Positions 2,616 to 56,891 are shown, counted from the stretch's first letter. The stretch is DNA of 57,067 nt from a bacterium (GCA_043818555.1 JBDRFP010000012.1:1-57067), one strand, 5' to 3'. Notes: generated by a model from the letters alone, not told the origin. Program-made: numbers and translations.

Positions 2616-4796
2616 CTACAAGTCTTCAATATTCCTCAAAAACGACCCCGGAGCCTCCTTCTTTACCCGCTCGCCCAAATCATCAAGCACAATCGAGGGC
2701 TCATCATCCCAAAAAGTATCACCACTACTCAATCCAGAACTCGCCGATCCTGCCGATCCCCAGCCAGACCTCGCCGATCCCCAACCCCCTTTTCCTCCCT
2801 TCTCGTCCCTTATCGCCCCATATCCCACCAACCCTTGCCTCAACTGTACCAGCTCGCATTGGCCCTCTGGAATTTCGTCCAAAAATAGCGAAGGTTGCTT
2901 GATTTCCAGCGTATCGTGTCCGGCAGTGATTGGATAAGTTAAGTAGAGCTGGCGGCGAGCGCGAGTGGTTGCAACATAAAATAACCGACGCTCTTCCTCC
3001 AAACCGCCTTTTTCGTCATACGCCCGTCCGTGCGGGAAGTACCCGTCAGCCAAGTGCATTACAAACACATTATCCCACTCAAGTCCCTTGGCCTGATGAA
3101 CGGTCGACAACACCAAACGATCTTCGTCGTCGGCAGCAGTTTCCCGCACAGCTCCATACTCGTTCGTAAGACTCACCGCATCCAAAAACTCGCCCAAATC
3201 CTCAAACTGCTCTGCAAAAACCGCAAACTGTTCCAAGTCCTCCAGTCGCTCGTGATGGTTCGGATGCGTGTGCTCCAAATAAGCCTGGTAATCGTCACTT
3301 GCAGCCAGGGCGCGAATATAATACGACGGCACGCGCCTGTCCTTAAGGATGCATCGCAAAATTCTCATAAACCCATCCCAGCCGCTACGCGCGCCTGCTC
3401 CCATAGACACATCCAGCGCCAGTACATCATCGATATTTTCAATCTCCGAGCACGCTGCGGCGATCTTCACGGCTGTAACAATACCAATCCCGGGATGAAT
3501 TTTCAGCGCCCGCATCCATGCCATAGCGTCGCGAGGATTTTGAATCAGGCGGAGATGCGCCACCGTGTCCTTAACATGCGCGCGCTCAAAAAACTTCAGC
3601 CCTCCGCGGTATTCATATGGGATGTCCCTCTTCATTAGTTCAAACTCAAGCGCCTGCGAATGGAACGAGGCCCTGAAAAGCACAGCGATCTCACTCAGTG
3701 ATTTCCCCGATTCAATCAGAGAAGCAATTTGCTCGGCAATGTACTGTGCCTCCTGAGTTTGGTTAGCTGCCGGCACAAGGCACGGCGCCTCCCCTGGGCG
3801 CACAACAGCGATAAGGTCTTTTTTAAACTGATCCGTATTGTTTGCAATAACAGCATTTGCAACGCCTAAAATTTGCGGCGTTGACCTATAATTTGTTGTG
3901 AGTTTATACATCTTGGTTCCACCAAATCGGCTTGGAAATTCCAAAATATTGCGAACCTCAGCCGCACGGAATGAATATATGCTCTGAGCGTCGTCGCCAA
4001 CTACAAGTAGGTTTTTATGTTTTGACGAAAGTTGGCGCACAATTTCGGCCTGGATTACATTAGTGTCCTGAAACTCGTCAACTAAAACATATTGAAATTG
4101 TCGCGACAAATGATCGCGCACATCCCCGTGGTTTTGCAGCAGGTCGAGCAGGCGGAGCAATAAATCGTCAAAATCCATTGAATTTTGCTGACGTTTTTGG
4201 CCGTGATAGAGCTTTGCAACCTCGCCGATCTCGTCAATAAGCGGCAAAAACTTTGGATGCTTATTTTCGAGCGCGGCTTCAAGCGAACAATTTTTATTTG
4301 ATTGAAACGATATTATGCCGTGCAAAACGCCAGCACTTGGAAACCGTTTGCCCTTGGTGTCGATCTTTAGTTCTTTTACGCACAAGCTAACCAGTTCACG
4401 CGAATCTTCCTGGTCCAAGATCGAGAAGTTGGATTCATAGCCCAACTTGGCCGCATACTTTCTAAGAATCCTGTTCGCGATGCTATGAAAAGTCCCACCC
4501 CAAAGCCCTGCCGGGTACTGGCCAAGTAACATTTCGACCCTGCTGACCATTTCCTTCGCAGCCTTATTTGTAAAAGTGAGCAGGAGAATATTTTGAGGCT
4601 GGACTCCGTTTTCAAGCAGCCGAGCGACGCGATATGTGATTGTACGAGTTTTTCCAGATCCTGCGCCTGCCAAAACCAAACAAGGGCCGTCCCCGTTTTG
4701 AACAACATCGAGCTGGTCAGGATTAAGTTCGGCTTCGTAGTCGATTTTTAGATCGCGACCCTGCCCGGCGCCTTGTAGTATGAATTCCTTTGTCAT
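2616..4796 (-). CDS. UvrD/PcrA-family ATP-dependent DNA helicase
   Basis: LAGAGSGKT Walker A, TFTNKAA, VDEFQDTN, VGDDAQSIYSFR, NYRS, STVHQAKGLEW, EERRLFYVATTRA. Confidence 0.96.
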   Translation of the reverse strand: MTKEFILQGAGQGRDLKIDYEAELNPDQLDVVQNGDGPCLVLAGAGSGKTRTITYRVARLLENGVQPQNILLLTFTNKAAKEMVSRVEMLLGQYPAGLWGGTFHSIANRILRKYAAKLGYESNFSILDQEDSRELVSLCVKELKIDTKGKRFPSAGVLHGIISFQSNKNCSLEAALENKHPKFLPLIDEIGEVAKLYHGQKRQQNSMDFDDLLLRLLDLLQNHGDVRDHLSRQFQYVLVDEFQDTNVIQAEIVRQLSSKHKNLLVVGDDAQSIYSFRAAEVRNILEFPSRFGGTKMYKLTTNYRSTPQILGVANAVIANNTDQFKKDLIAVVRPGEAPCLVPAANQTQEAQYIAEQIASLIESGKSLSEIAVLFRASFHSQALEFELMKRDIPYEYRGGLKFFERAHVKDTVAHLRLIQNPRDAMAWMRALKIHPGIGIVTAVKIAAACSEIENIDDVLALDVSMGAGARSGWDGFMRILRCILKDRRVPSYYIRALAASDDYQAYLEHTHPNHHERLEDLEQFAVFAEQFEDLGEFLDAVSLTNEYGAVRETAADDEDRLVLSTVHQAKGLEWDNVFVMHLADGYFPHGRAYDEKGGLEEERRLFYVATTRARRQLYLTYPITAGHDTLEIKQPSLFLDEIPEGQCELVQLRQGLVGYGAIRDEKGGKGGWGSARSGWGSAGSASSGLSSGDTFWDDEPSIVLDDLGERVKKEAPGSFLRNIEDL

Positions 4797-4912
4797 GGTG
4801 GAGGCATTTTACCATACTTTCGATCCCCCTCCTTTTCAAGGAGGGGCTAGGGGTGGTTACCCGCCTATCGAATCTGCCCCGATCCGTAATCTTGATCCGT
4901 CTCGATCTCCCC

Positions 4913-5104
4913 AAAAGAAAAGACCCCCGCCGACCGAAATCGACGAGGGCTAGGAGGAATACTCAACCATGTCAGACAAGCGATTTCTCGCTAGCAGGAA
5001 TAGGCACCCATCATACCTGCTTGAGGACGCTCAAATGCTGCGTTATCGCGGTTCCCAACAGCCCGCGAATAGCCTGCACTCCACGCTATCCCTTACTCTC
5101 AAGC
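4913..5104 (-). ncRNA. Putative structured ncRNA, cassette 1 of 4
   Basis: TTGACA(5139-5134)-17-CACACT promoter. GCTTGAG/CTCAAGC, GCGT/ACGC and CGCGG/CCGCG stems, AGCGA-GAAA-TCGCT hairpin, GC hairpin plus U-tract terminator. Homologous to cassette 3. Confidence 0.65.
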
Positions 5105-5242
5105 AAAACTAGTGTGCCATATTGGTGGAAATTTGTCAAGGCTCAGCTGTAAAGCTAGCAAAAAAAACAGGGGTTCACAGTTCACCGACTTGCAACTTTG
5201 CACTTGCAACTTGCGACTTGTGCCTTTAAACTTTTGACTTTT

Positions 5243-5418
5243 AAAAAAATGACCCCCGCCGACCGAAATCGACGAGGGCTAGGAGTGCAAATGCTGTCTT
5301 CGCAATGCAAGAACCAAACGGTCGTGATGAACCGCTACCAGAGGCGCACAGATCCTCGCGAAGCGTTTCGGCACATTACGCCTGCCTAAGTTTCCGTACT
5401 GTCCTTTCGCTCCCTAGC
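5243..5418 (-). ncRNA. Putative structured ncRNA, cassette 2 of 4
   Basis: TTGACA(5453-5448)-17-TATATT. The 5' GCTAGGGAG can pair with CTCCTAGC just before the terminator. Terminator identical to cassette 1. Confidence 0.6.
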
Positions 5419-5447
5419 ATTGCCAATATACCAGTTTGTTGATGCTA

Positions 5448-5832
5448 TGTCAAGAAAGTGTTGGTTTCAATGGGGCTAGAGGGGCTAGATCTGTTAGCCC
5501 CGTTAGCTCCTAAGTAAACCACATGCAACTTTCTGACTTTCTTACTAAATAAAAAATGCCCCCGCCGACCGTCAACGGCAGGGGCAAGCAGGGACTGGCG
5601 TACCATGAAGCGCCTGCTTAAGGACACGGCGCACTGCGTTATCGAGCTCGCTTCCTACCTCGACCAGCCTATGCAACCACGCTGTCCCTTACTCTTAAGC
5701 GTTGGCATTATGCCAGATTATTGATGTTTTGTCAAGAAAGTGCTGGTTTCAATGGTTGCAACGGAGCTAGAGGGGCTAGATCTGTTAGCCCCGTTAGCTC
5801 CTAAGTAAACCACATGCAACTTTCTGACTTTC
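5448..5832. repeat. ~95-bp direct duplication (5448-5541 and 5730-5832) upstream of cassettes 2 and 3
   Basis: GCTAGAGGGGCTAGATCTGTTAGCCCCGTTAGCTCCTAAGTAAACCACATGCAACTTT occurs twice, each time abutting a -35 box. Confidence 0.9.
5551..5700 (-). ncRNA. Putative structured ncRNA, cassette 3 of 4
   Basis: TTGACA(5735-5730)-17-CATAAT. GCTTAAG/CTTAAGC is compensatory relative to cassette 1; also GGACA/TGTCC, CGAG/CTCG, AGCAGG/CCTGCT and a related terminator. Confidence 0.65.
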
Positions 5833-6083
5833 CGACTTTCGGCTTTAGGACTTTCCGATTCCTGACTAATATCAACCTGTTGCAGATTGTGGCCGATCGG
5901 TTAAAAAGTGCAACACTAGATAAGCAGTGCTTTCTAACTAACCCTCGCGAAATTTCAAATTTTTTTTTGTTTTGATGTGTACCCAAATTTAGCCGATCGG
6001 TTAAAAACAGGTACACATTTGAGTTGTGTTATGGGATTGGTACCGTAGCGCGCCGTGTTGAATGCTAGTGTTGAATACTAACG

Positions 6084-6325
6084 AAAAGAAAACACCCCCG
6101 CCGATACAAGATCAGCAGGGGTGAGACGAGGTCCCGACCAGAAATTCTCGATAGGGGTCAGGCCGATTTTTTCTCGGACCCTCTTGCCCTTCCCCCAACG
6201 CCACCCACGACTCCAGAGTCACGTGCCTCATGGGTGGAACGCCTACACGTCTCCGTAAGAGTCGTCGAGTTACCTGGAGCAAATAACCCTTCGACCTTAC
6301 GCCTGCCACCTGGTCAGGATTGACC
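6084..6325 (-). ncRNA. Putative structured ncRNA, cassette 4 of 4
   Basis: TTGACA(6359-6354)-17-TATAGT. Closing stem TCCTGACCAG/CTGGTCGGGA around three internal hairpins; related terminator plus U-tract. Confidence 0.6.
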
Positions 6326-6519
6326 GGAATACTATAACATATTTCCGCACTTTTGTCAAGCCCTGAGGGCAAAAAGCGCCAAAAAACAGGCGTTTTGGCC
6401 TGTTTGCAGTCGTTAAAATCGTTAAATCGTTCGCTACGCTCACTCGTTAAAGTCGTTAATTCAATCGGCTTTAACGCTTTTAACAAGGCCGTCAGGCCGA
6501 TTTAACATCTTGAACGATG

Positions 6520-7872
6520 CTAAACCACCAACGGCAAATCGTGAATCGTATTCGGTCTTCCCATTAAAACGTCAGCAATTCGATACGCGCCGTGCGTAGG
6601 AGCCTCAATGAACCCGTTCCACGCCTTGCGCGCCAAAGCGCCGGAGTTAATCCAGTCAAACAGCCACTCGTTCGCATAACGAGGATCGAGCTGGTCGATT
6701 CCACCGCCGACTTGCTCCAACCACTTATGGTTAAAGCCCTCTTGCGACCCTACAGTCGGCGCCATAATAATCGGAATGCCCAAACCCGTGTAGAACGAAA
6801 GCTCGCTCGGTTTTGTCCACAAAATGTCGATTTTACGCATCAGCTTGGTAAACTCATCAAAATACTTTGGCCGGTTTTCCTCAAACATAATGTTCAGGTT
6901 GCCTTTTTTGATTTCGTTCGTGAGCCCTGCTCTGTGCGACTCTTCGATAAAATACTCAGCAACCTCAGGTCGAGTGCCAGCGACCAAATGTAGAATGATC
7001 TTGCCCTGCTTAATTTCGCGCTCCAAGCTTTTCGCAATGACAGCTCCAATTTCGCGCTGAGCTCCGGCGCCTCCAACGACAAACGCCAGATTAATAGGCT
7101 TTGGCTTTGTCGATCTGATAGTTTTGCAATACTCAGGGCCAAGATGATTTGTTAACGCCTGCCCGGTGTGAGCCACAAAAATGCCGTTCGGGTCCAGGTT
7201 GCAAATGCGACGCTGCATGTCGGAAATGGCAACCTTAGCATCAAGCCCGCCCACAGCCTCGGTTGGCAAAGGAAATCCGGTCAGTTCAATGTTTTTCGCC
7301 GACACGCCGTAGAGCTTAAGCCGCTCGACAACTCGGCCGTTCGGTGCAAAATATCTGATCCTTGATTTGCGCGGCTCTAGCGGAACCCAAGCTCGGCTCA
7401 TGTCAGCGTCGGTCACAAGCGAAAAAATCTCACCTGGGTAGCCAAACTCCTCTGCAGCAAACGCAGGCGACATAAAGGTGCACACAAGCGGCTTAGGATC
7501 CTTCGCAAGGCTTTCAATTAAGTGCCGCATGTGATTACGGTAGCGAATCAAAAAGTACATTTCGCGGACCTGAAGACTTGGGGCTGATAAATCGCGGCGA
7601 GGGTAAAAATCAGGAATGCGCTGCAGTTCATCCATTAACCCAAAAACCGCGCGCCCAAGCAGGGGTACTTTTTTAAATCGAGAAATCTTCTCGTAAATTT
7701 TACGCCCGCCTTCCCACAGCCTGCGGTCACTGTCAGGGATGCCGTCGTAGTCGTTGGCGATTATGACTTTGCCGCCGGCGAACTTGCGAAGAACGTGCGC
7801 AGGGCGTTCGTGCCCATAGCCCATATCCACCGCTACGACATGGGCGATATTTTTATATCCTCCTTTAGACAT
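6520..7872 (-). CDS. Glycosyltransferase-like protein (GT-B, MGDG synthase/MurG-like)
   Basis: N-terminal VDMGYGH, VTDAD, TGFPL, GGAGAQ, DILWTKPSEL, GSQE motifs. Confidence 0.65.
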   Translation of the reverse strand: MSKGGYKNIAHVVAVDMGYGHERPAHVLRKFAGGKVIIANDYDGIPDSDRRLWEGGRKIYEKISRFKKVPLLGRAVFGLMDELQRIPDFYPRRDLSAPSLQVREMYFLIRYRNHMRHLIESLAKDPKPLVCTFMSPAFAAEEFGYPGEIFSLVTDADMSRAWVPLEPRKSRIRYFAPNGRVVERLKLYGVSAKNIELTGFPLPTEAVGGLDAKVAISDMQRRICNLDPNGIFVAHTGQALTNHLGPEYCKTIRSTKPKPINLAFVVGGAGAQREIGAVIAKSLEREIKQGKIILHLVAGTRPEVAEYFIEESHRAGLTNEIKKGNLNIMFEENRPKYFDEFTKLMRKIDILWTKPSELSFYTGLGIPIIMAPTVGSQEGFNHKWLEQVGGGIDQLDPRYANEWLFDWINSGALARKAWNGFIEAPTHGAYRIADVLMGRPNTIHDLPLVV

Positions 7873-41173: not shown

Positions 41174-41358
41174 TCGACCCTCATTGGGTCGGTTTTGTTA
41201 TTGCCAGGTTTCAGAGGTCTCAAAGGTTTCAAAGGTTCACAGTTCATAGTTCACAGTTCATAGTTAATCGCCTACTTACTCTCGCGATTTAAAAACCCCC
41301 GCGGCGATACTTGATCGCTACAGGGGTCGGTCGACGCGGTCGAGCGCGTCGATTCTGC

Positions 41359-41763
41359 TCAGTTGAGCAGCAAGTATTCGATGGCAATGTCGAACGCACG
41401 ATTTGCGTCAGGACCTGGATACCCACCTCGAAATGTGAACTCTCCGATTGGAATGTACAGGGTAGAGCTGGCTCCAATGCAACCATCCGCGAACCTCACG
41501 AACTCGATGGACTCGTCCGGAGTCTCGCTCCAGCGCACACGGAACCCTTCGGTTGCGCCTATCGGAAGCTCAGCCTTAGCGAGCAGCTCTGGATACCCGA
41601 AGGTGCCGTAGCTCAGAAGTCCGTTGATCTCGTGCCAAACTCGTAGTGGCATCGCGCAATAAGCGACATCTAGAACGACGAAATTCCATCCAGCCCAACC
41701 GTCCGGATACTGCGTCGATGGCGGCCGCGACGCACGCGGATCGCAATAAAATACTTCACCCAT
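41359..41763 (-). CDS. Orphan hypothetical protein
   Basis: TTGACA...TATATT promoter, GGAGGG SD, terminator at 41295-41327. Confidence 0.65.
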   Translation of the reverse strand: MGEVFYCDPRASRPPSTQYPDGWAGWNFVVLDVAYCAMPLRVWHEINGLLSYGTFGYPELLAKAELPIGATEGFRVRWSETPDESIEFVRFADGCIGASSTLYIPIGEFTFRGGYPGPDANRAFDIAIEYLLLN

Positions 41764-53170: not shown

Positions 53171-54352
53171 TCAGCACTTTAAGGCAACGCTTTCCATTGC
53201 CAGTTTTGCATTTACATTCTGTTTAATTGCCAACTCTGCTGCGTTGATCGACTTGAGCGTTTCGGCCCAGGCCTGCGATGTTCGCGAGCTGGAAATTTGG
53301 CCTATTCGATCTACTGTACTTGACAAGCTAATCAGATTTTCCGAACCCGCTGATGCAAGCAGACAGTCGTGTACTACTAATCTGAGCCTTTGCAAGTCGA
53401 CAATGACATCAGCAGTCGTTCGGTCTTTGTCTTTTGACAGCTTTTCGATCGTACCAAACTTGTCTGCAAGTGGTGACTCAAGAAAGTTAAGCGTCTCATT
53501 GATTCGACCCCGAGCCTGGTCGCGCGTTTCTTTGTCAATCAAGCTCATTGCAATGCCCGGCCGGCCTGCAGCCAGCCCCGCCAGTTCGTGCGCAAGGTCT
53601 TTTGTTAAGTTTTGCGACGATAGAAAGCTGCAAATTTTTTCACGCTCTACTAAAGTGAATCGAATATGGACCGTGCGCGATGTTATGGTTGATCGTAGCT
53701 CAGAGGCGTCTGATGTGATTAAGATTATCAGCGTGTCGCCACTAGGTTCTTCCAAAGTTTTTAAAAGTGCATTCTGCGCTGCAATCGTCATTGCCTCTGC
53801 GTCTTCGATGATTGCGATCTTTTTGCTTTTACCAAAAGAAAACATTGACAAACGCTCTCTTAAATTTCGAATATCATCAACTGAAATTGATCCTTTTTCT
53901 GACGGCTTCACGATCGTGATGTCCGGGTTCGCTGACAATACCTGATCGCTAACTGCAAAATCACACTTTCCCTTCTCTTCCCCTACCACACCCTTTCCGA
54001 CTTTCCCGATCGCCAACACTCCTGCCTCGTTGGCAAACTCCTCTTTCCCAACTCCGACTTCGTTGGCCAACCCTTCTTTCCCCATCTCCTCCCTTCCCCC
54101 CCCATCTCCTCCCTTTCTGGCCTTCTCGATCACCAGCCCCCCTTCTTCCCCCCTCTCTTCCCCTCTCTGCCCATTTCCTCCCTTTTCGACCTTCAACGCT
54201 CCCCTTACAAATTCCCTGGCCACCGCCCCCTTGCCAACACCCTTTGGTCCGGAAAAACAATAAGCATGCGCAAGCGTCCCTCTTTCAACAACTCGTGCTA
54301 AATATTCAGTTTGCGCCTCGTGGCCAATAATCGACTTGAAATCAAGGGTCAT
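53171..54352 (-). CDS. holB: DNA polymerase III delta' subunit with a low-complexity insertion
   Basis: IIGH, HAYCFSGPKGVGK, ISVDDIR, AQNALLKTLEEP, TITSR. Confidence 0.88.
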   Translation of the reverse strand: MTLDFKSIIGHEAQTEYLARVVERGTLAHAYCFSGPKGVGKGAVAREFVRGALKVEKGGNGQRGEERGEEGGLVIEKARKGGDGGGREEMGKEGLANEVGVGKEEFANEAGVLAIGKVGKGVVGEEKGKCDFAVSDQVLSANPDITIVKPSEKGSISVDDIRNLRERLSMFSFGKSKKIAIIEDAEAMTIAAQNALLKTLEEPSGDTLIILITSDASELRSTITSRTVHIRFTLVEREKICSFLSSQNLTKDLAHELAGLAAGRPGIAMSLIDKETRDQARGRINETLNFLESPLADKFGTIEKLSKDKDRTTADVIVDLQRLRLVVHDCLLASAGSENLISLSSTVDRIGQISSSRTSQAWAETLKSINAAELAIKQNVNAKLAMESVALKC

Positions 54353-54353
54353 A

Positions 54354-54490
54354 CCCGGTAGCACAACTTCGAATGATGCCTTCGAAATACGTGCGGCATC
54401 AAAATTCTAGCGTTAAACACAATAATTAATGATTTGGAAATTTTCTGCTCGGCATAACATACACTTCAATATCGAAGTTGTACTACCGGG
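54354..54490. mobile_element. MITE-like inverted-repeat element at the holB start codon
   Basis: CCCGGTAGCACAACTTCGA...TCGAAGTTGTACTACCGGG flanked on both sides by CATA. Confidence 0.65.
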
Positions 54491-54876
54491 CATAACTATA
54501 CAATTATAGCATAAAAACAAGAGTAGACAGTAGTCAGTAGACAGTAGTCAGTAGATCGCGCAATAAACCCCGTCAAATCAACTATAAATCGTGCATTGCC
54601 CCCTGCACCCCGTTAACCCCCTCGATCCTTTGCCAACCCCTTTTCAACCTTTTCTCCATGTTTGTCGGTCTGTAAGTCTGTAACGAAATTCATTTCATAA
54701 CCTCTCTTAACCTCCTCCCGGCCGAAGGCCGGGTAACCTCCTCGTTTGTTGGAATAACCTCTTCGCCCCTCGAATTCCCTCTTTCCCTGTCCAAAAACAC
54801 TGAACAAAACCTCTTCAAAATCCCACTTTTCCACTAAAACTAGCCAAAAACTACTAAATCGACGATAAGCCCTGAC

Positions 54877-54905
54877 TTGACAAAACCTAGAATTTGTGTT
54901 ATATT
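54877..54905 (+). promoter_or_regulatory. Sigma70 promoter
   Basis: TTGACA-17-TATATT with an extended -10 TG. Confidence 0.7.
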
Positions 54906-55011
54906 TCTCCGTTCGATTAAAGACCGAGTAAGGTCAAAAATCGATAAAAATTCGCTCCGGCACGGTGCCGGCGCGATGGTTCGATTCATTCAACAAAAAA
55001 AGGAGGCAGAA

Positions 55012-56094
55012 ATGCCGAACGGAAATGCTGACCAAAAACTGCGCGCCATCGAGGAAGAAGCCAGCGATTTTCGCGAGTGGGTGCTCTACGGTCGGACCGA
55101 GAAGTCCGACGGTCTGCGCTACATGATGCGCATGGCGGTCGGAGCTCTCCTCGAGGAGAGCTTCATCAAGACTCGCGACTCGCTGGACGTGGCTGCGATC
55201 CTGGTGGGCCATGTGGCCGAGCTGAACCTGCGCAAGGCGCGGTGGCTCGCCGACCTCATGGTCGAAGGCGAGCTGAACCGCAAGGTTCCGCACCCCGGTG
55301 TGGCAGCCCTGGCCGAAGTGGCCGATGGGCTGTCGATGGGCCGCCACAGGGTGCCGGCCATCGACATCGATCGCGACGGCGTGCTCGAGAGCCTGAGCGG
55401 TGCGGCCGAAAGGCTGCTCGCGCTCGCTCGAGAGAACAAGTTCATCGACCACGCCGCAATCGAGGCCAAGTTCAAGAAGGCCGGGTTGCTGAGCGAGGAC
55501 GGCGGCGAGGAGAAGCGCGAGGACGGCGGCGGCAAGGGCGACGACAAGGACGACAAAAAGTCCGAGTTCGTCGCTCGAGCTGAGCACGCTCTGCGGGAAG
55601 TCGCGGGCGGGCTCTCCACCGAGGAGGACGAAGTCGCTTGGCGACTGTTCCCCGAAGGCGAACGCCCGGAGGGGCTGAGACACGCCGCCAAGCGGCTGCT
55701 CAGGCGCGCGCTCATGCGCCCGACCAAGCGCATGACCGCGCTCGGCGCCTACACCCACCTCAACTCCGCCGAGCTCGTCTCGGCCGAGGACGCGGACAAG
55801 ATCCGCGCCAAGGTGCTGGCCAAGGCCAAGGAAGAAGCCGAGCAGGCTGCCGAACCCCAGACGTTCAAGGACGTCCAGGATCAGGCCACCGAAGCTGCCC
55901 CTGAGACCGTTGACGGTGCGTCTGACGCGCCCGAGGTCGAGGAGAAGGCCGGAGCTGAGGCGCTGGAGGAGGTTGAAGAGCCTCCCGAGGCCGAACAGGC
56001 CCGGGTAGAGGCTGAAAAGCCCGCAGCCAGCGATGACGATTCCGCTGTGGTAGTCGACCTGAGCGCGCTCAAGGCGCGCTTCAGCGGCAAGTAG
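55012..56094 (+). CDS. Orphan helical protein with an acidic low-complexity tail
   Basis: AAGGAGG SD, very strong GC3 bias, no recognised motif. Confidence 0.8.
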   Translation: MPNGNADQKLRAIEEEASDFREWVLYGRTEKSDGLRYMMRMAVGALLEESFIKTRDSLDVAAILVGHVAELNLRKARWLADLMVEGELNRKVPHPGVAALAEVADGLSMGRHRVPAIDIDRDGVLESLSGAAERLLALARENKFIDHAAIEAKFKKAGLLSEDGGEEKREDGGGKGDDKDDKKSEFVARAEHALREVAGGLSTEEDEVAWRLFPEGERPEGLRHAAKRLLRRALMRPTKRMTALGAYTHLNSAELVSAEDADKIRAKVLAKAKEEAEQAAEPQTFKDVQDQATEAAPETVDGASDAPEVEEKAGAEALEEVEEPPEAEQARVEAEKPAASDDDSAVVVDLSALKARFSGK

Positions 56095-56103
56095 ACGCAC
56101 GTT

Positions 56104-56666
56104 CTACGTGCAGGATCCAGATAGCAATATCTGTGGTCCTGCACGTAGGTCATTTACAGGTCATGAATGCTTGTCCTGATCTGTAATGTGACTTCATTAA
56201 AACTTGTAGTTAATTCGTTCTATATTTGCCCAGATGCTAGGCGCAACGAGCACCGAAGTAAGCCGTACTAATTCGTACGGCGAACGAGGAGCGCAGTCGC
56301 AACAACGCAGATGGGTGAATATTGGACGAATTAACTCACAGCAACCTGGAGGGGAGAGACTATATAGTTCGCACGGATTGGAGGAGAATCCAGCGACTAT
56401 CGGTATTCAAGTGCATGGACTTGGCATAGCTAACTCCATCAACAGATCGTTCAAAATGTGCTTAGATGCTAGGCGCGGGGAAAACGGCGAGTAGGCGTAC
56501 TTAAACGTACGGTGACGAACCGCAGGGGCCCTGCAACAACGCAGATGAGTGCATTTTGGACGGTCTGCCTGCACACACCCGAATGCCATTAGCGCATATC
56601 ATCTTCGGACGATCACTGCGCTTCGCCCTGAGTTTACTCAAGGCAACTCTTCTCCAGTTTGCTGTG
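56104..56666 (+). ncRNA. Putative large structured ncRNA with a duplicated domain
   Basis: Near-continuous nested helices, GCAA and cUUCGg tetraloops, two covarying copies of a ~127-nt domain. Confidence 0.65.
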
Positions 56667-56711: not shown

Positions 56712-56891
56712 ATGAGTTCGGAAGACAGTGGATGGGCAGTGTTCGGCAAAATCGTGCTCGTCGCCGGCGTACTGGCCGGCGCAATCTGGGGCGTCAGCTC
56801 CGGAGTGTCATCAGTACACCAACGCGGCTACAACCGAGGCGTCTACGCCGCCAAGGGCGAGATCACCACGATCACGCCCAGGGCCGAGTAG
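56712..56891 (+). CDS. Small single-TM protein
   Basis: AAGGAGG SD; MSSEDSGWAVFGKIVLVAGVLAGAIWG...RGYNRGV. Confidence 0.65.
   Translation: MSSEDSGWAVFGKIVLVAGVLAGAIWGVSSGVSSVHQRGYNRGVYAAKGEITTITPRAE

Follow-up and report, generated by a model that had tools for sequence, protein, structure and literature searches.

Two paralogous candidate structured small RNAs in a row of four promoter-RNA-terminator cassettes of a bacterial genome

The cassette row and its surroundings

The window, the whole stretch of 57,067 nt of bacterial DNA that was analysed, was found to contain a gene-free gap of 1.7 kb flanked by a DUF6938 gene and a PcrA/UvrD-type helicase gene (Table 1). The gap was filled by four head-to-tail promoter-RNA-terminator cassettes on the minus strand, with unit 4 first along that strand, followed by units 3, 2 and 1. 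Units 1 and 3, whose RNAs start near G5104 and G5700, are the cassettes 1 and 3 of the first-pass annotation. The consensus scan counted 7 promoter-like and 10 terminator-like sites in the region, where 1.6 and 3.0, respectively, were expected. A window-wide scan over the whole 57 kb found seven promoter sites with 11/12 consensus, three of which were the promoters of the cassettes.

The promoters of units 2, 3 and 4 were each found by the consensus scan to contain 11/12 consensus letters, with TTGACA, a 17-nt spacer and a TG extension, followed by the -10 hexamers TATATT (unit 2), CATAAT (unit 3) and TATAGT (unit 4). The promoter of unit 1, as read from the sequence, contained 9/12 consensus letters with the -10 hexamer at 3/6, and it therefore fell below the scan thresholds; its TGn extension and its spacing were those of the other three cassettes. 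The P1 helix of the structured core began 6 nt past the -10 hexamer in units 1 and 3, and the predicted RNAs were ~185 nt (unit 1) and ~150 nt (unit 3) long. Downstream of the terminator of each unit, another promoter and no gene leader was found; after unit 1 it was a promoter-like site at 4839-4811, ahead of the helicase ATG at 4796. Units 1 and 3 were thereby found in silico as related units in tandem, each with a predicted sigma-70-type promoter and an intrinsic terminator of its own.

The fold of unit 2 was not better than its shuffles (z +0.91). Against R2, the joint model of units 1 and 3, unit 2 scored 8.6 bits (E 6.4), which is noise level, though the match lay at the equivalent place (5333-5418); it may be either a diverged relative of units 1 and 3 or a different RNA. 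The RNA of unit 4 was found to contain a multi-branched fold of -106.9 kcal/mol (z -3.66, with 0/200 shuffles as good) and had no match in Rfam 15 at E<=10. The 14-nt word GGCAGGCGUAAKGU was common to units 4 and 2 (93%), at 6294-6307 and 5373-5386, respectively.

Table 1. Positions of the genes, cassettes and predicted RNA elements of the region, counted from the first letter of the window
Feature	Position	Strand	Description
PcrA/UvrD-type helicase gene	2616-4796		726 aa; one flank of the gap
Unit 1 intrinsic terminator	4915-4950	-	Stem 4950-4923, then T run; 12 pairs, 7 G-C
Unit 1 hairpin P5	4993-5021	-	AGCAGG/CCUGCU; AGC common to P1 3' strand
Unit 1 structured core	5019-5104	-	86 nt from predicted +1 G5104
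Unit 1 outer helices	P1 5104-5099/5024-5019; P2 5091-5088/5028-5025; P2b 5086-5085/5030-5029	-	
Unit 1 inner helices	P3' 5080-5076/5038-5034; P3b 5073-5072/5041-5040; P4 5068-5063/5051-5046	-	
Unit 1 bulge	5098-5092	-	GAGUAAG
Unit 1 promoter	5111-5139	-	TTGACA 5139-5134, 17-nt spacer, TG 5119-5118, CACACT 5116-5111
Unit 2 cassette	5245-5453	-	Promoter 5453-5425, RNA ~5418-5250, terminator 5279-5252; between units 1 and 3
Unit 3 intrinsic terminator	5547-5586	-	Stem 5586-5557, then TTTTTT; 11 pairs, 9 G-C
Unit 3 hairpin P5	5587-5619	-	AAGCAGG/CCUGCUU; overlaps P1 3' strand
Unit 3 structured core	5616-5700	-	85 nt from predicted +1 G5700
Unit 3 helices	P1 5700-5695/5621-5616; P2 5687-5684/5625-5622; P3' 5675-5671/5634-5630; P4 5663-5659/5646-5642	-	
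Unit 3 promoter	5707-5735	-	TTGACA, 17-nt spacer, TG, CATAAT; 11/12
Unit 4 cassette	6083-6359	-	Promoter 6359-6331, ~240-nt RNA, terminator 6123-6093 (13 pairs)
DUF6938 gene	6520-7872		450 aa; other flank of the gap; GT-B glycosyltransferase-like by predicted structure

The 85-nt segments just ahead of the unit 2 and unit 3 promoters (5462-5546 and 5753-5837) were found to be 94% identical, with differing RNAs behind them, and the terminators of units 1 and 2 were 95% identical, with differing RNA bodies. This mosaic identity among the cassettes points to gene conversion at work in the locus, and the near-identity of the 85-nt segments suggests shared regulation or recent conversion. The same segments contained a nested palindrome (GGAGCTA..GGGGCTA / TAGCCCC..TAGCTCC) and a word like CTTTCTGACTTTC occurred four times ahead of them (5529-5858).

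Two hairpins 100 nt apart on the minus strand (5880-6020) were found to contain the same 16-nt loop word TTTTTAACCGATCGGC (5892-5907 and 5992-6007), within which lies the palindrome CCGATCGG, and differing stems, namely TGTGTACC/GGTACACA against TGTTGCA/TGCAACA; possible identities are operators, small RNAs and repeated palindromic elements. Within unit 3, the 18-nt sequence UAACGCAGUGCGCCGUGU (5624-5641) was 83% complementary to 6041-6058 of the same strand, between unit 4 and the hairpin pair, and this may well be chance. Short imperfect tandem words were found at 5160-5260 (AAGTTGCA/AAAGTC), 41230-41300 (TGTGAAC/TGAAACC) and 54510-54560 (GTAGACA/GTAGTCA), such words filling the spacers that follow terminators and precede promoters in several intergenic regions.

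By eye, a TATAAT-like hexamer was seen at 5 or more of the 24 gene starts listed, its end lying 3-9 nt ahead of the ATG; examples in the window are the starts at 7872, 9177, 43698, 51333 and 51951. Shine-Dalgarno words were nearly absent from the gene starts, with GGAGG-type exceptions at 41762 (minus strand), 55003 and 56713 (both plus strand). Because the hexamers hug the ATGs and Shine-Dalgarno words are almost absent, the host appears to be largely leaderless, and there are weak hints, from CPR phyla that recur among the closest atlas clusters, that it belongs to the candidate phyla radiation (CPR). A G+C-rich stretch at 54877-56100 (0.567 for 54001-56000 against about 0.47 elsewhere) was found behind an 11/12 promoter (54877, plus strand), followed by the presence of an AGGAGG-led ORF from 55013; its ORFs were open on both strands without a Pfam match, and it may be foreign DNA.

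Another paralogous element pair was found on the plus strand at 56215-56345 and 56450-56585, 80% identical and arranged as a tandem ahead of a small Shine-Dalgarno-led ORF that starts at 56713. For these elements RNAalifold predicted a long closing stem and 28 pairs, of which 5 had double changes. It contained the words AGGC and AACGCAG in common with units 1 and 3, and it had no Rfam match at E<=10 and no R2 match.

The fold common to units 1 and 3

All the words quoted by the first-pass annotation were present on the minus strand, and the stems that it had listed as held by compensatory changes were found in both copies, with every pair standard when checked letter by letter. The sequence AGTAAGGGAYAGCGTGG occurred exactly twice in the 57 kb, at 5081-5097 and 5677-5693, and CGATAACGCAG likewise exactly twice, at 5038-5048 and 5634-5644, which places both words in units 1 and 3. 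Words of the core regarded as conserved include GAGUAAG, AGGC and AUAACGCAG.

The core was found to contain, in order, P1 of 6 bp, the 7-nt purine bulge GAGUAAG, P2 of 4 bp, P2b of 2 bp, P3' of 5 bp, P3b of 2 bp and P4 of 6 bp (unit 1) or 5 bp (unit 3). P1 contained GCUUGA/UCAAGC in unit 1 whereas it contained GCUUAA/UUAAGC in unit 3, followed by GGAU/GUCC against GGAC/GUCC in P2 and AGUGC/GCAUU against UGCAU/GUGCG in P3'. P4 contained (U)CGCGG/CCGCG(A) in unit 1 and (U)CGAG/CUCG(A) in unit 3. The fixed loops were GAGUAAG, GUGG, AG and AUAA. The letters that had been described beforehand as invariant and unpaired were partly so, whereas several of them take part in pairs of the best fold, in which AGGCU and ACGCAG are joined through their GC letters, P3' is closed by the last G of CGCAG and P4 by the GA of GAUAAC. 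Taken singly, the cores folded with modest z-scores, at a minimum free energy (MFE) of -33.4 kcal/mol for unit 1 (z -2.05) and -29.6 kcal/mol for unit 3 (z -1.11).

On the two-row MAFFT alignment of units 1 and 3 (A2), RNAalifold returned a rod-like fold of 24 pairs that included 4 double changes. A 22-pair version was standard at 22/22 pairs in both rows, with 4 double and 4 single changes; as a control on A2, sliding the 3' partner by 1-3 columns left 25-44% of the cells pairing and no double changes. The swap control gave 30/500, and stricter nulls were run because with two rows this control cannot fall below about 1 in 16. The RNAalifold energy was -21.8 against -11.3 +/- 2.8 for column shuffles that kept each column in its class (identical, different or gap), and 1/1000 shuffles reached the observed value. 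The structure conservation index, the consensus fold energy divided by the mean single-sequence energy, was 0.69 and was reached by 13/1000 shuffles. When the variable letters alone were shuffled, 0/5000 trials for unit 1 and 8/5000 for unit 3 matched the common architecture in energy, and these shuffle figures are somewhat flattering because the tests used the two sequences from which the fold had been derived.

In blocks set as conserved or variable after looking at the data, 4 differences were found in 58 conserved columns against 25 in 32 variable columns, the identities being 54/58 and 7/32, respectively. All four differences in conserved columns fell at paired positions and kept the pair, with G-C to A-U in P1, U-G to C-G in P2 and G-C to G-U in P2b. 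In P3', 5/5 pairs were formed in both copies, all five varying and three by double change, and in P3' and the outer P4 the sequence was replaced and the pairing retained. The bulge, the internal-loop letters and the helix-closing pairs were nearly unchanged between the copies. The selection on RNA structure proposed at first pass is thus supported as far as two paralogues can show, since P3' and the distal P4 have been replaced and still pair, and it is a reasonable reading carried by two paralogues of one genome.

The blocks can also be read as the residue of a duplicated, gene-converted intergenic mosaic without RNA-level function, in which the shared hairpins would be by-products. The spacers of this genome are rich in palindromes and short repeats, others lying nearby, the cassettes share identity in the mosaic manner described above, and no relatives were found in the scan of 185,579 genomes or the antisense-ORF protein search given below. 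Gene conversion could explain part of the block-wise identity of units 1 and 3, but it cannot explain that unrelated letters at equivalent places pair in both copies, as in P3'; the column-shuffle result and the strong promoters and terminators around each copy are likewise left unexplained. This by-product reading is held to be improbable.

Alternative pairings, relatives and known families

The first-pass annotation had allowed for a crossing pairing of P3', that is, a pseudoknot. For such a crossing, P3' and a helix between the invariant GCGU (nt 19-22) and the invariant ACGC (nt 62-65) would have to form together, and the GCGU/ACGC helix, 4/4 pairs of it invariant, had a pairing probability of 0.0 in both nested ensembles. 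It competes with P2b and P3b, and the penalty for letting it replace P3', P3b and P2b is ~10 kcal/mol (unit 1) or ~6 kcal/mol (unit 3). The strand order (GCGU, 2 nt, the P3' 5' strand, 32 nt, ACGC, 1 nt, the P3' 3' strand) is that of an H-type pseudoknot, whereas one of the two helices never varies here and therefore gains no comparative support. By geometric reasoning, a true H-type knot would require the shallow groove of a 4-bp helix to be bridged by A66 alone, which would be very tight. A pseudoknot in units 1 and 3 is, by these models, unsupported.

The mutually exclusive pairing AGCAGG/CCUGCU, proposed to start from the 3' end of P1, was found in both copies as the hairpin P5, which overlapped the 3' strand of P1 by 3-4 nt in both units. 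In the full-length RNA of unit 1 the two states were nearly equal, at -69.1 kcal/mol with P1 forced and -68.7 kcal/mol with P5 forced (probabilities of about 0.64 and 0.33), whereas in unit 3 the MFE structure of -62.7 kcal/mol used P5, the P1-forced structure reached -58.5 kcal/mol and P1 had a probability of 0.0. The P5 strands were identical in both copies and showed no covariation. The choice was found to have no effect on termination: the terminator arm paired with a probability of 0.95-1.0 in both units whether P1 or P5 was forced, and no upstream sequence is predicted to be able to compete with it. Since the terminator forms in either conformation, the P1/P5 choice cannot gate termination, and the element is not a terminator riboswitch.

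R2, run over the whole window with filters off, scored unit 1 at 104.5 bits and unit 3 at 101.3 bits, followed by a next best match of 11.9 bits; a third copy was not found by this search of the 57 kb. A blastn search of 4900-6400 against phage and plasmid collections gave no match. The pattern AGTAAGNNNNAGCGN{20,50}GATAACGCAG, which needs exact matches and thus misses diverged relatives, was found at 5 loci among 185,579 species genomes, in unrelated taxa and without the other conserved words; the genome of the window itself was absent from these 5 matches. None of the 5 loci scored above 9.2 bits against R2 (the matched stretch of locus L002 scored 6.5 bits), and they are judged to be chance matches.

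Against Rfam 15 (4227 models), only four tRNAs in the whole window passed the gathering threshold, and ARAGORN likewise found only four tRNAs, all elsewhere in the window. At E<=10, the interval 4700-6600 contained 7 weak matches, terminator-driven or chance, none of which covered the core. The proposed label of a riboswitch- or ribozyme-like core was not borne out, as no such family of Rfam 15 matched at E<=10, the P1/P5 choice left the terminator unaffected and a gene in cis was lacking. A transcription-terminating riboswitch was rejected in particular because each unit ends in its own terminator, the next feature being a promoter and not the leader of a controlled gene, and because the alternative to the P1 3' strand does not compete with the terminator.

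Further identities were set aside as well. Neither Rfam nor ARAGORN supported SRP, 6S, tmRNA or RNase P RNA among the cassettes. For a CsrB/RsmZ-type sponge, units 1-4 contained 3, 4, 2 and 4 GGA motifs, respectively, where 3.1-5.1 would be expected, and 919 to 1724 of 2000 shuffles contained at least as many. TIGR arrays are outlined in PMC12045711 as short 36-nt dual-spacer units beside a Nop-domain Tas protein; here the repeats were 300-600 nt apart, with promoters and terminators and without a 36-nt period, and no Nop domain was matched among the 35 ORFs scanned with Pfam. That paper alone was found in the literature on non-coding RNAs of CPR/Patescibacteria, papers not being searchable by RNA sequence.

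Small peptide genes were rejected because units 1 and 3 contained no common reading frame, and for the antisense ORF over unit 1 (4790-5152) 19 protein candidates were found, none at E<=0.01. An anti-Shine-Dalgarno seed CCUCC, present before the terminators of units 1 and 2, was rejected since by eye about 1/24 gene starts was Shine-Dalgarno-like and unit 3 contained no CCUCC.

Interpretation and comparison with known systems

Units 1 and 3 are interpreted, at about even chances, as sibling, stand-alone, trans-acting structured small RNAs (sRNAs) of a family without a match in Rfam 15. They would be two paralogous, separately transcribed sRNA genes in a row of four cassettes, the first ~86 nt of each RNA folding to an irregular hairpin whose closing helix, P1, starts at the base predicted to be transcribed first. 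The RNAs would act in trans and not as cis leaders, since the terminator forms in either conformation and the next downstream feature is a promoter. The stable hairpin would display its conserved unpaired letters to a protein, another RNA or possibly a small molecule, and the competition between P1 and the AGCAGG hairpin may alter what the RNA exposes, either at its 5' end or immediately ahead of the terminator.

Plain base-pairing sibling sRNAs of the OmrA/OmrB type, in which the first 24 nt would be the seed and the hairpin would only stabilise, are an unlikely alternative that retains some force. The first 24 letters of units 1 and 3 were identical at 22/24 positions, the genes lie in tandem, each with its own promoter and terminator, and OmrA and OmrB have their first 21 nt in common (PMC4211561). 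For both differences in the first 24 nt, however, the partner strand contains the matching change, an argument for pairing of these letters within the RNA, and in the model the 5' block is mostly buried in P1 and P2. A target search with five RNA segments against 31 gene starts of the window, which at 57 kb has little power, found none that beats the shuffled controls, 40 to 181 of 200 shuffles being as good.

A stand-alone aptamer or 'orphan riboswitch' sRNA, in which a ligand would fix P1 and free either the 5' tail or the P5 strand CCUGCU(U) to switch a function in trans, is regarded as quite unlikely. The interleaving of conserved unpaired letters with covarying helices, the overlap of the P1 3' strand with the alternative hairpin in both copies and the nearly equal states of unit 1 are what such a switch would contain; opposed to these are the lack of any Rfam 15 aptamer family at E<=10, a terminator uncoupled from the choice, the lack of a gene in cis, a simple rod without a multi-helix junction and a P5 stem without covariation. 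In its boldest form, the ~86-nt core would be a new class of ligand- or protein-sensing free-standing switch, in which binding would fix P1 and unmask the C/U-rich strand beside the terminator, and an uncultured, largely leaderless and possibly CPR host would encode it in several copies within an RNA island of at least four undescribed structured RNAs; this is held to be doubtful. A self-cleaving ribozyme core is scarcely credible, its compact size, conserved unpaired letters and covarying stems being set against the lack of a match to any ribozyme model of Rfam 15 at E<=10, by which the known ribozyme classes were also rejected, the unsupported pseudoknot, and a fold that begins at the predicted +1 and so leaves no upstream substrate strand.

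As structured sibling sRNAs, units 1 and 3 would, if expressed, add an undescribed structured sRNA family, and units 2 and 4 would join them in a compact island of non-coding RNA genes with strong promoters. The host lineage is poorly studied, with genes mostly without leaders or Shine-Dalgarno sites, and sRNA regulation there is little understood; the conserved rod with its fixed loops offers a tractable entry point to sRNA regulation in such hosts. Interest would be much higher if the core were a free-standing ligand sensor, and for now the family is a reasonable candidate and not a surprise.

Among known systems, Listeria SreA/SreB and the cobalamin-controlled EutX/Rli55 are riboswitch aptamers with a terminator at their end that function as sRNAs, and they are recognisable members of known aptamer classes placed in front of genes. 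Units 1 and 3 resemble them in their layout, a structured 5' domain with P1 as its closing helix, then a hairpin and an intrinsic terminator, and in possibly acting in trans, whereas the core of units 1 and 3 has no Rfam match, its terminator is insensitive to the P1/P5 choice and no gene lies in cis.

The tandem sibling sRNAs OmrA/OmrB, PrrF1/PrrF2 and AbcR1/AbcR2, in the account given of them in PMC4211561, resemble units 1 and 3 in being adjacent related sRNA genes, each with its own 'orphan' promoter and intrinsic terminator, and siblings of the OmrA/OmrB type further resemble them in containing near-identical blocks, the 5' end included, with a divergent middle. Units 1 and 3 have no sequence relation to those families in Rfam 15. 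Unlike in the OmrA/OmrB type, the conserved 5' block here pairs with its conserved 3' counterpart and helices are retained in the divergent middle, and a structured domain is therefore favoured over a free seed.
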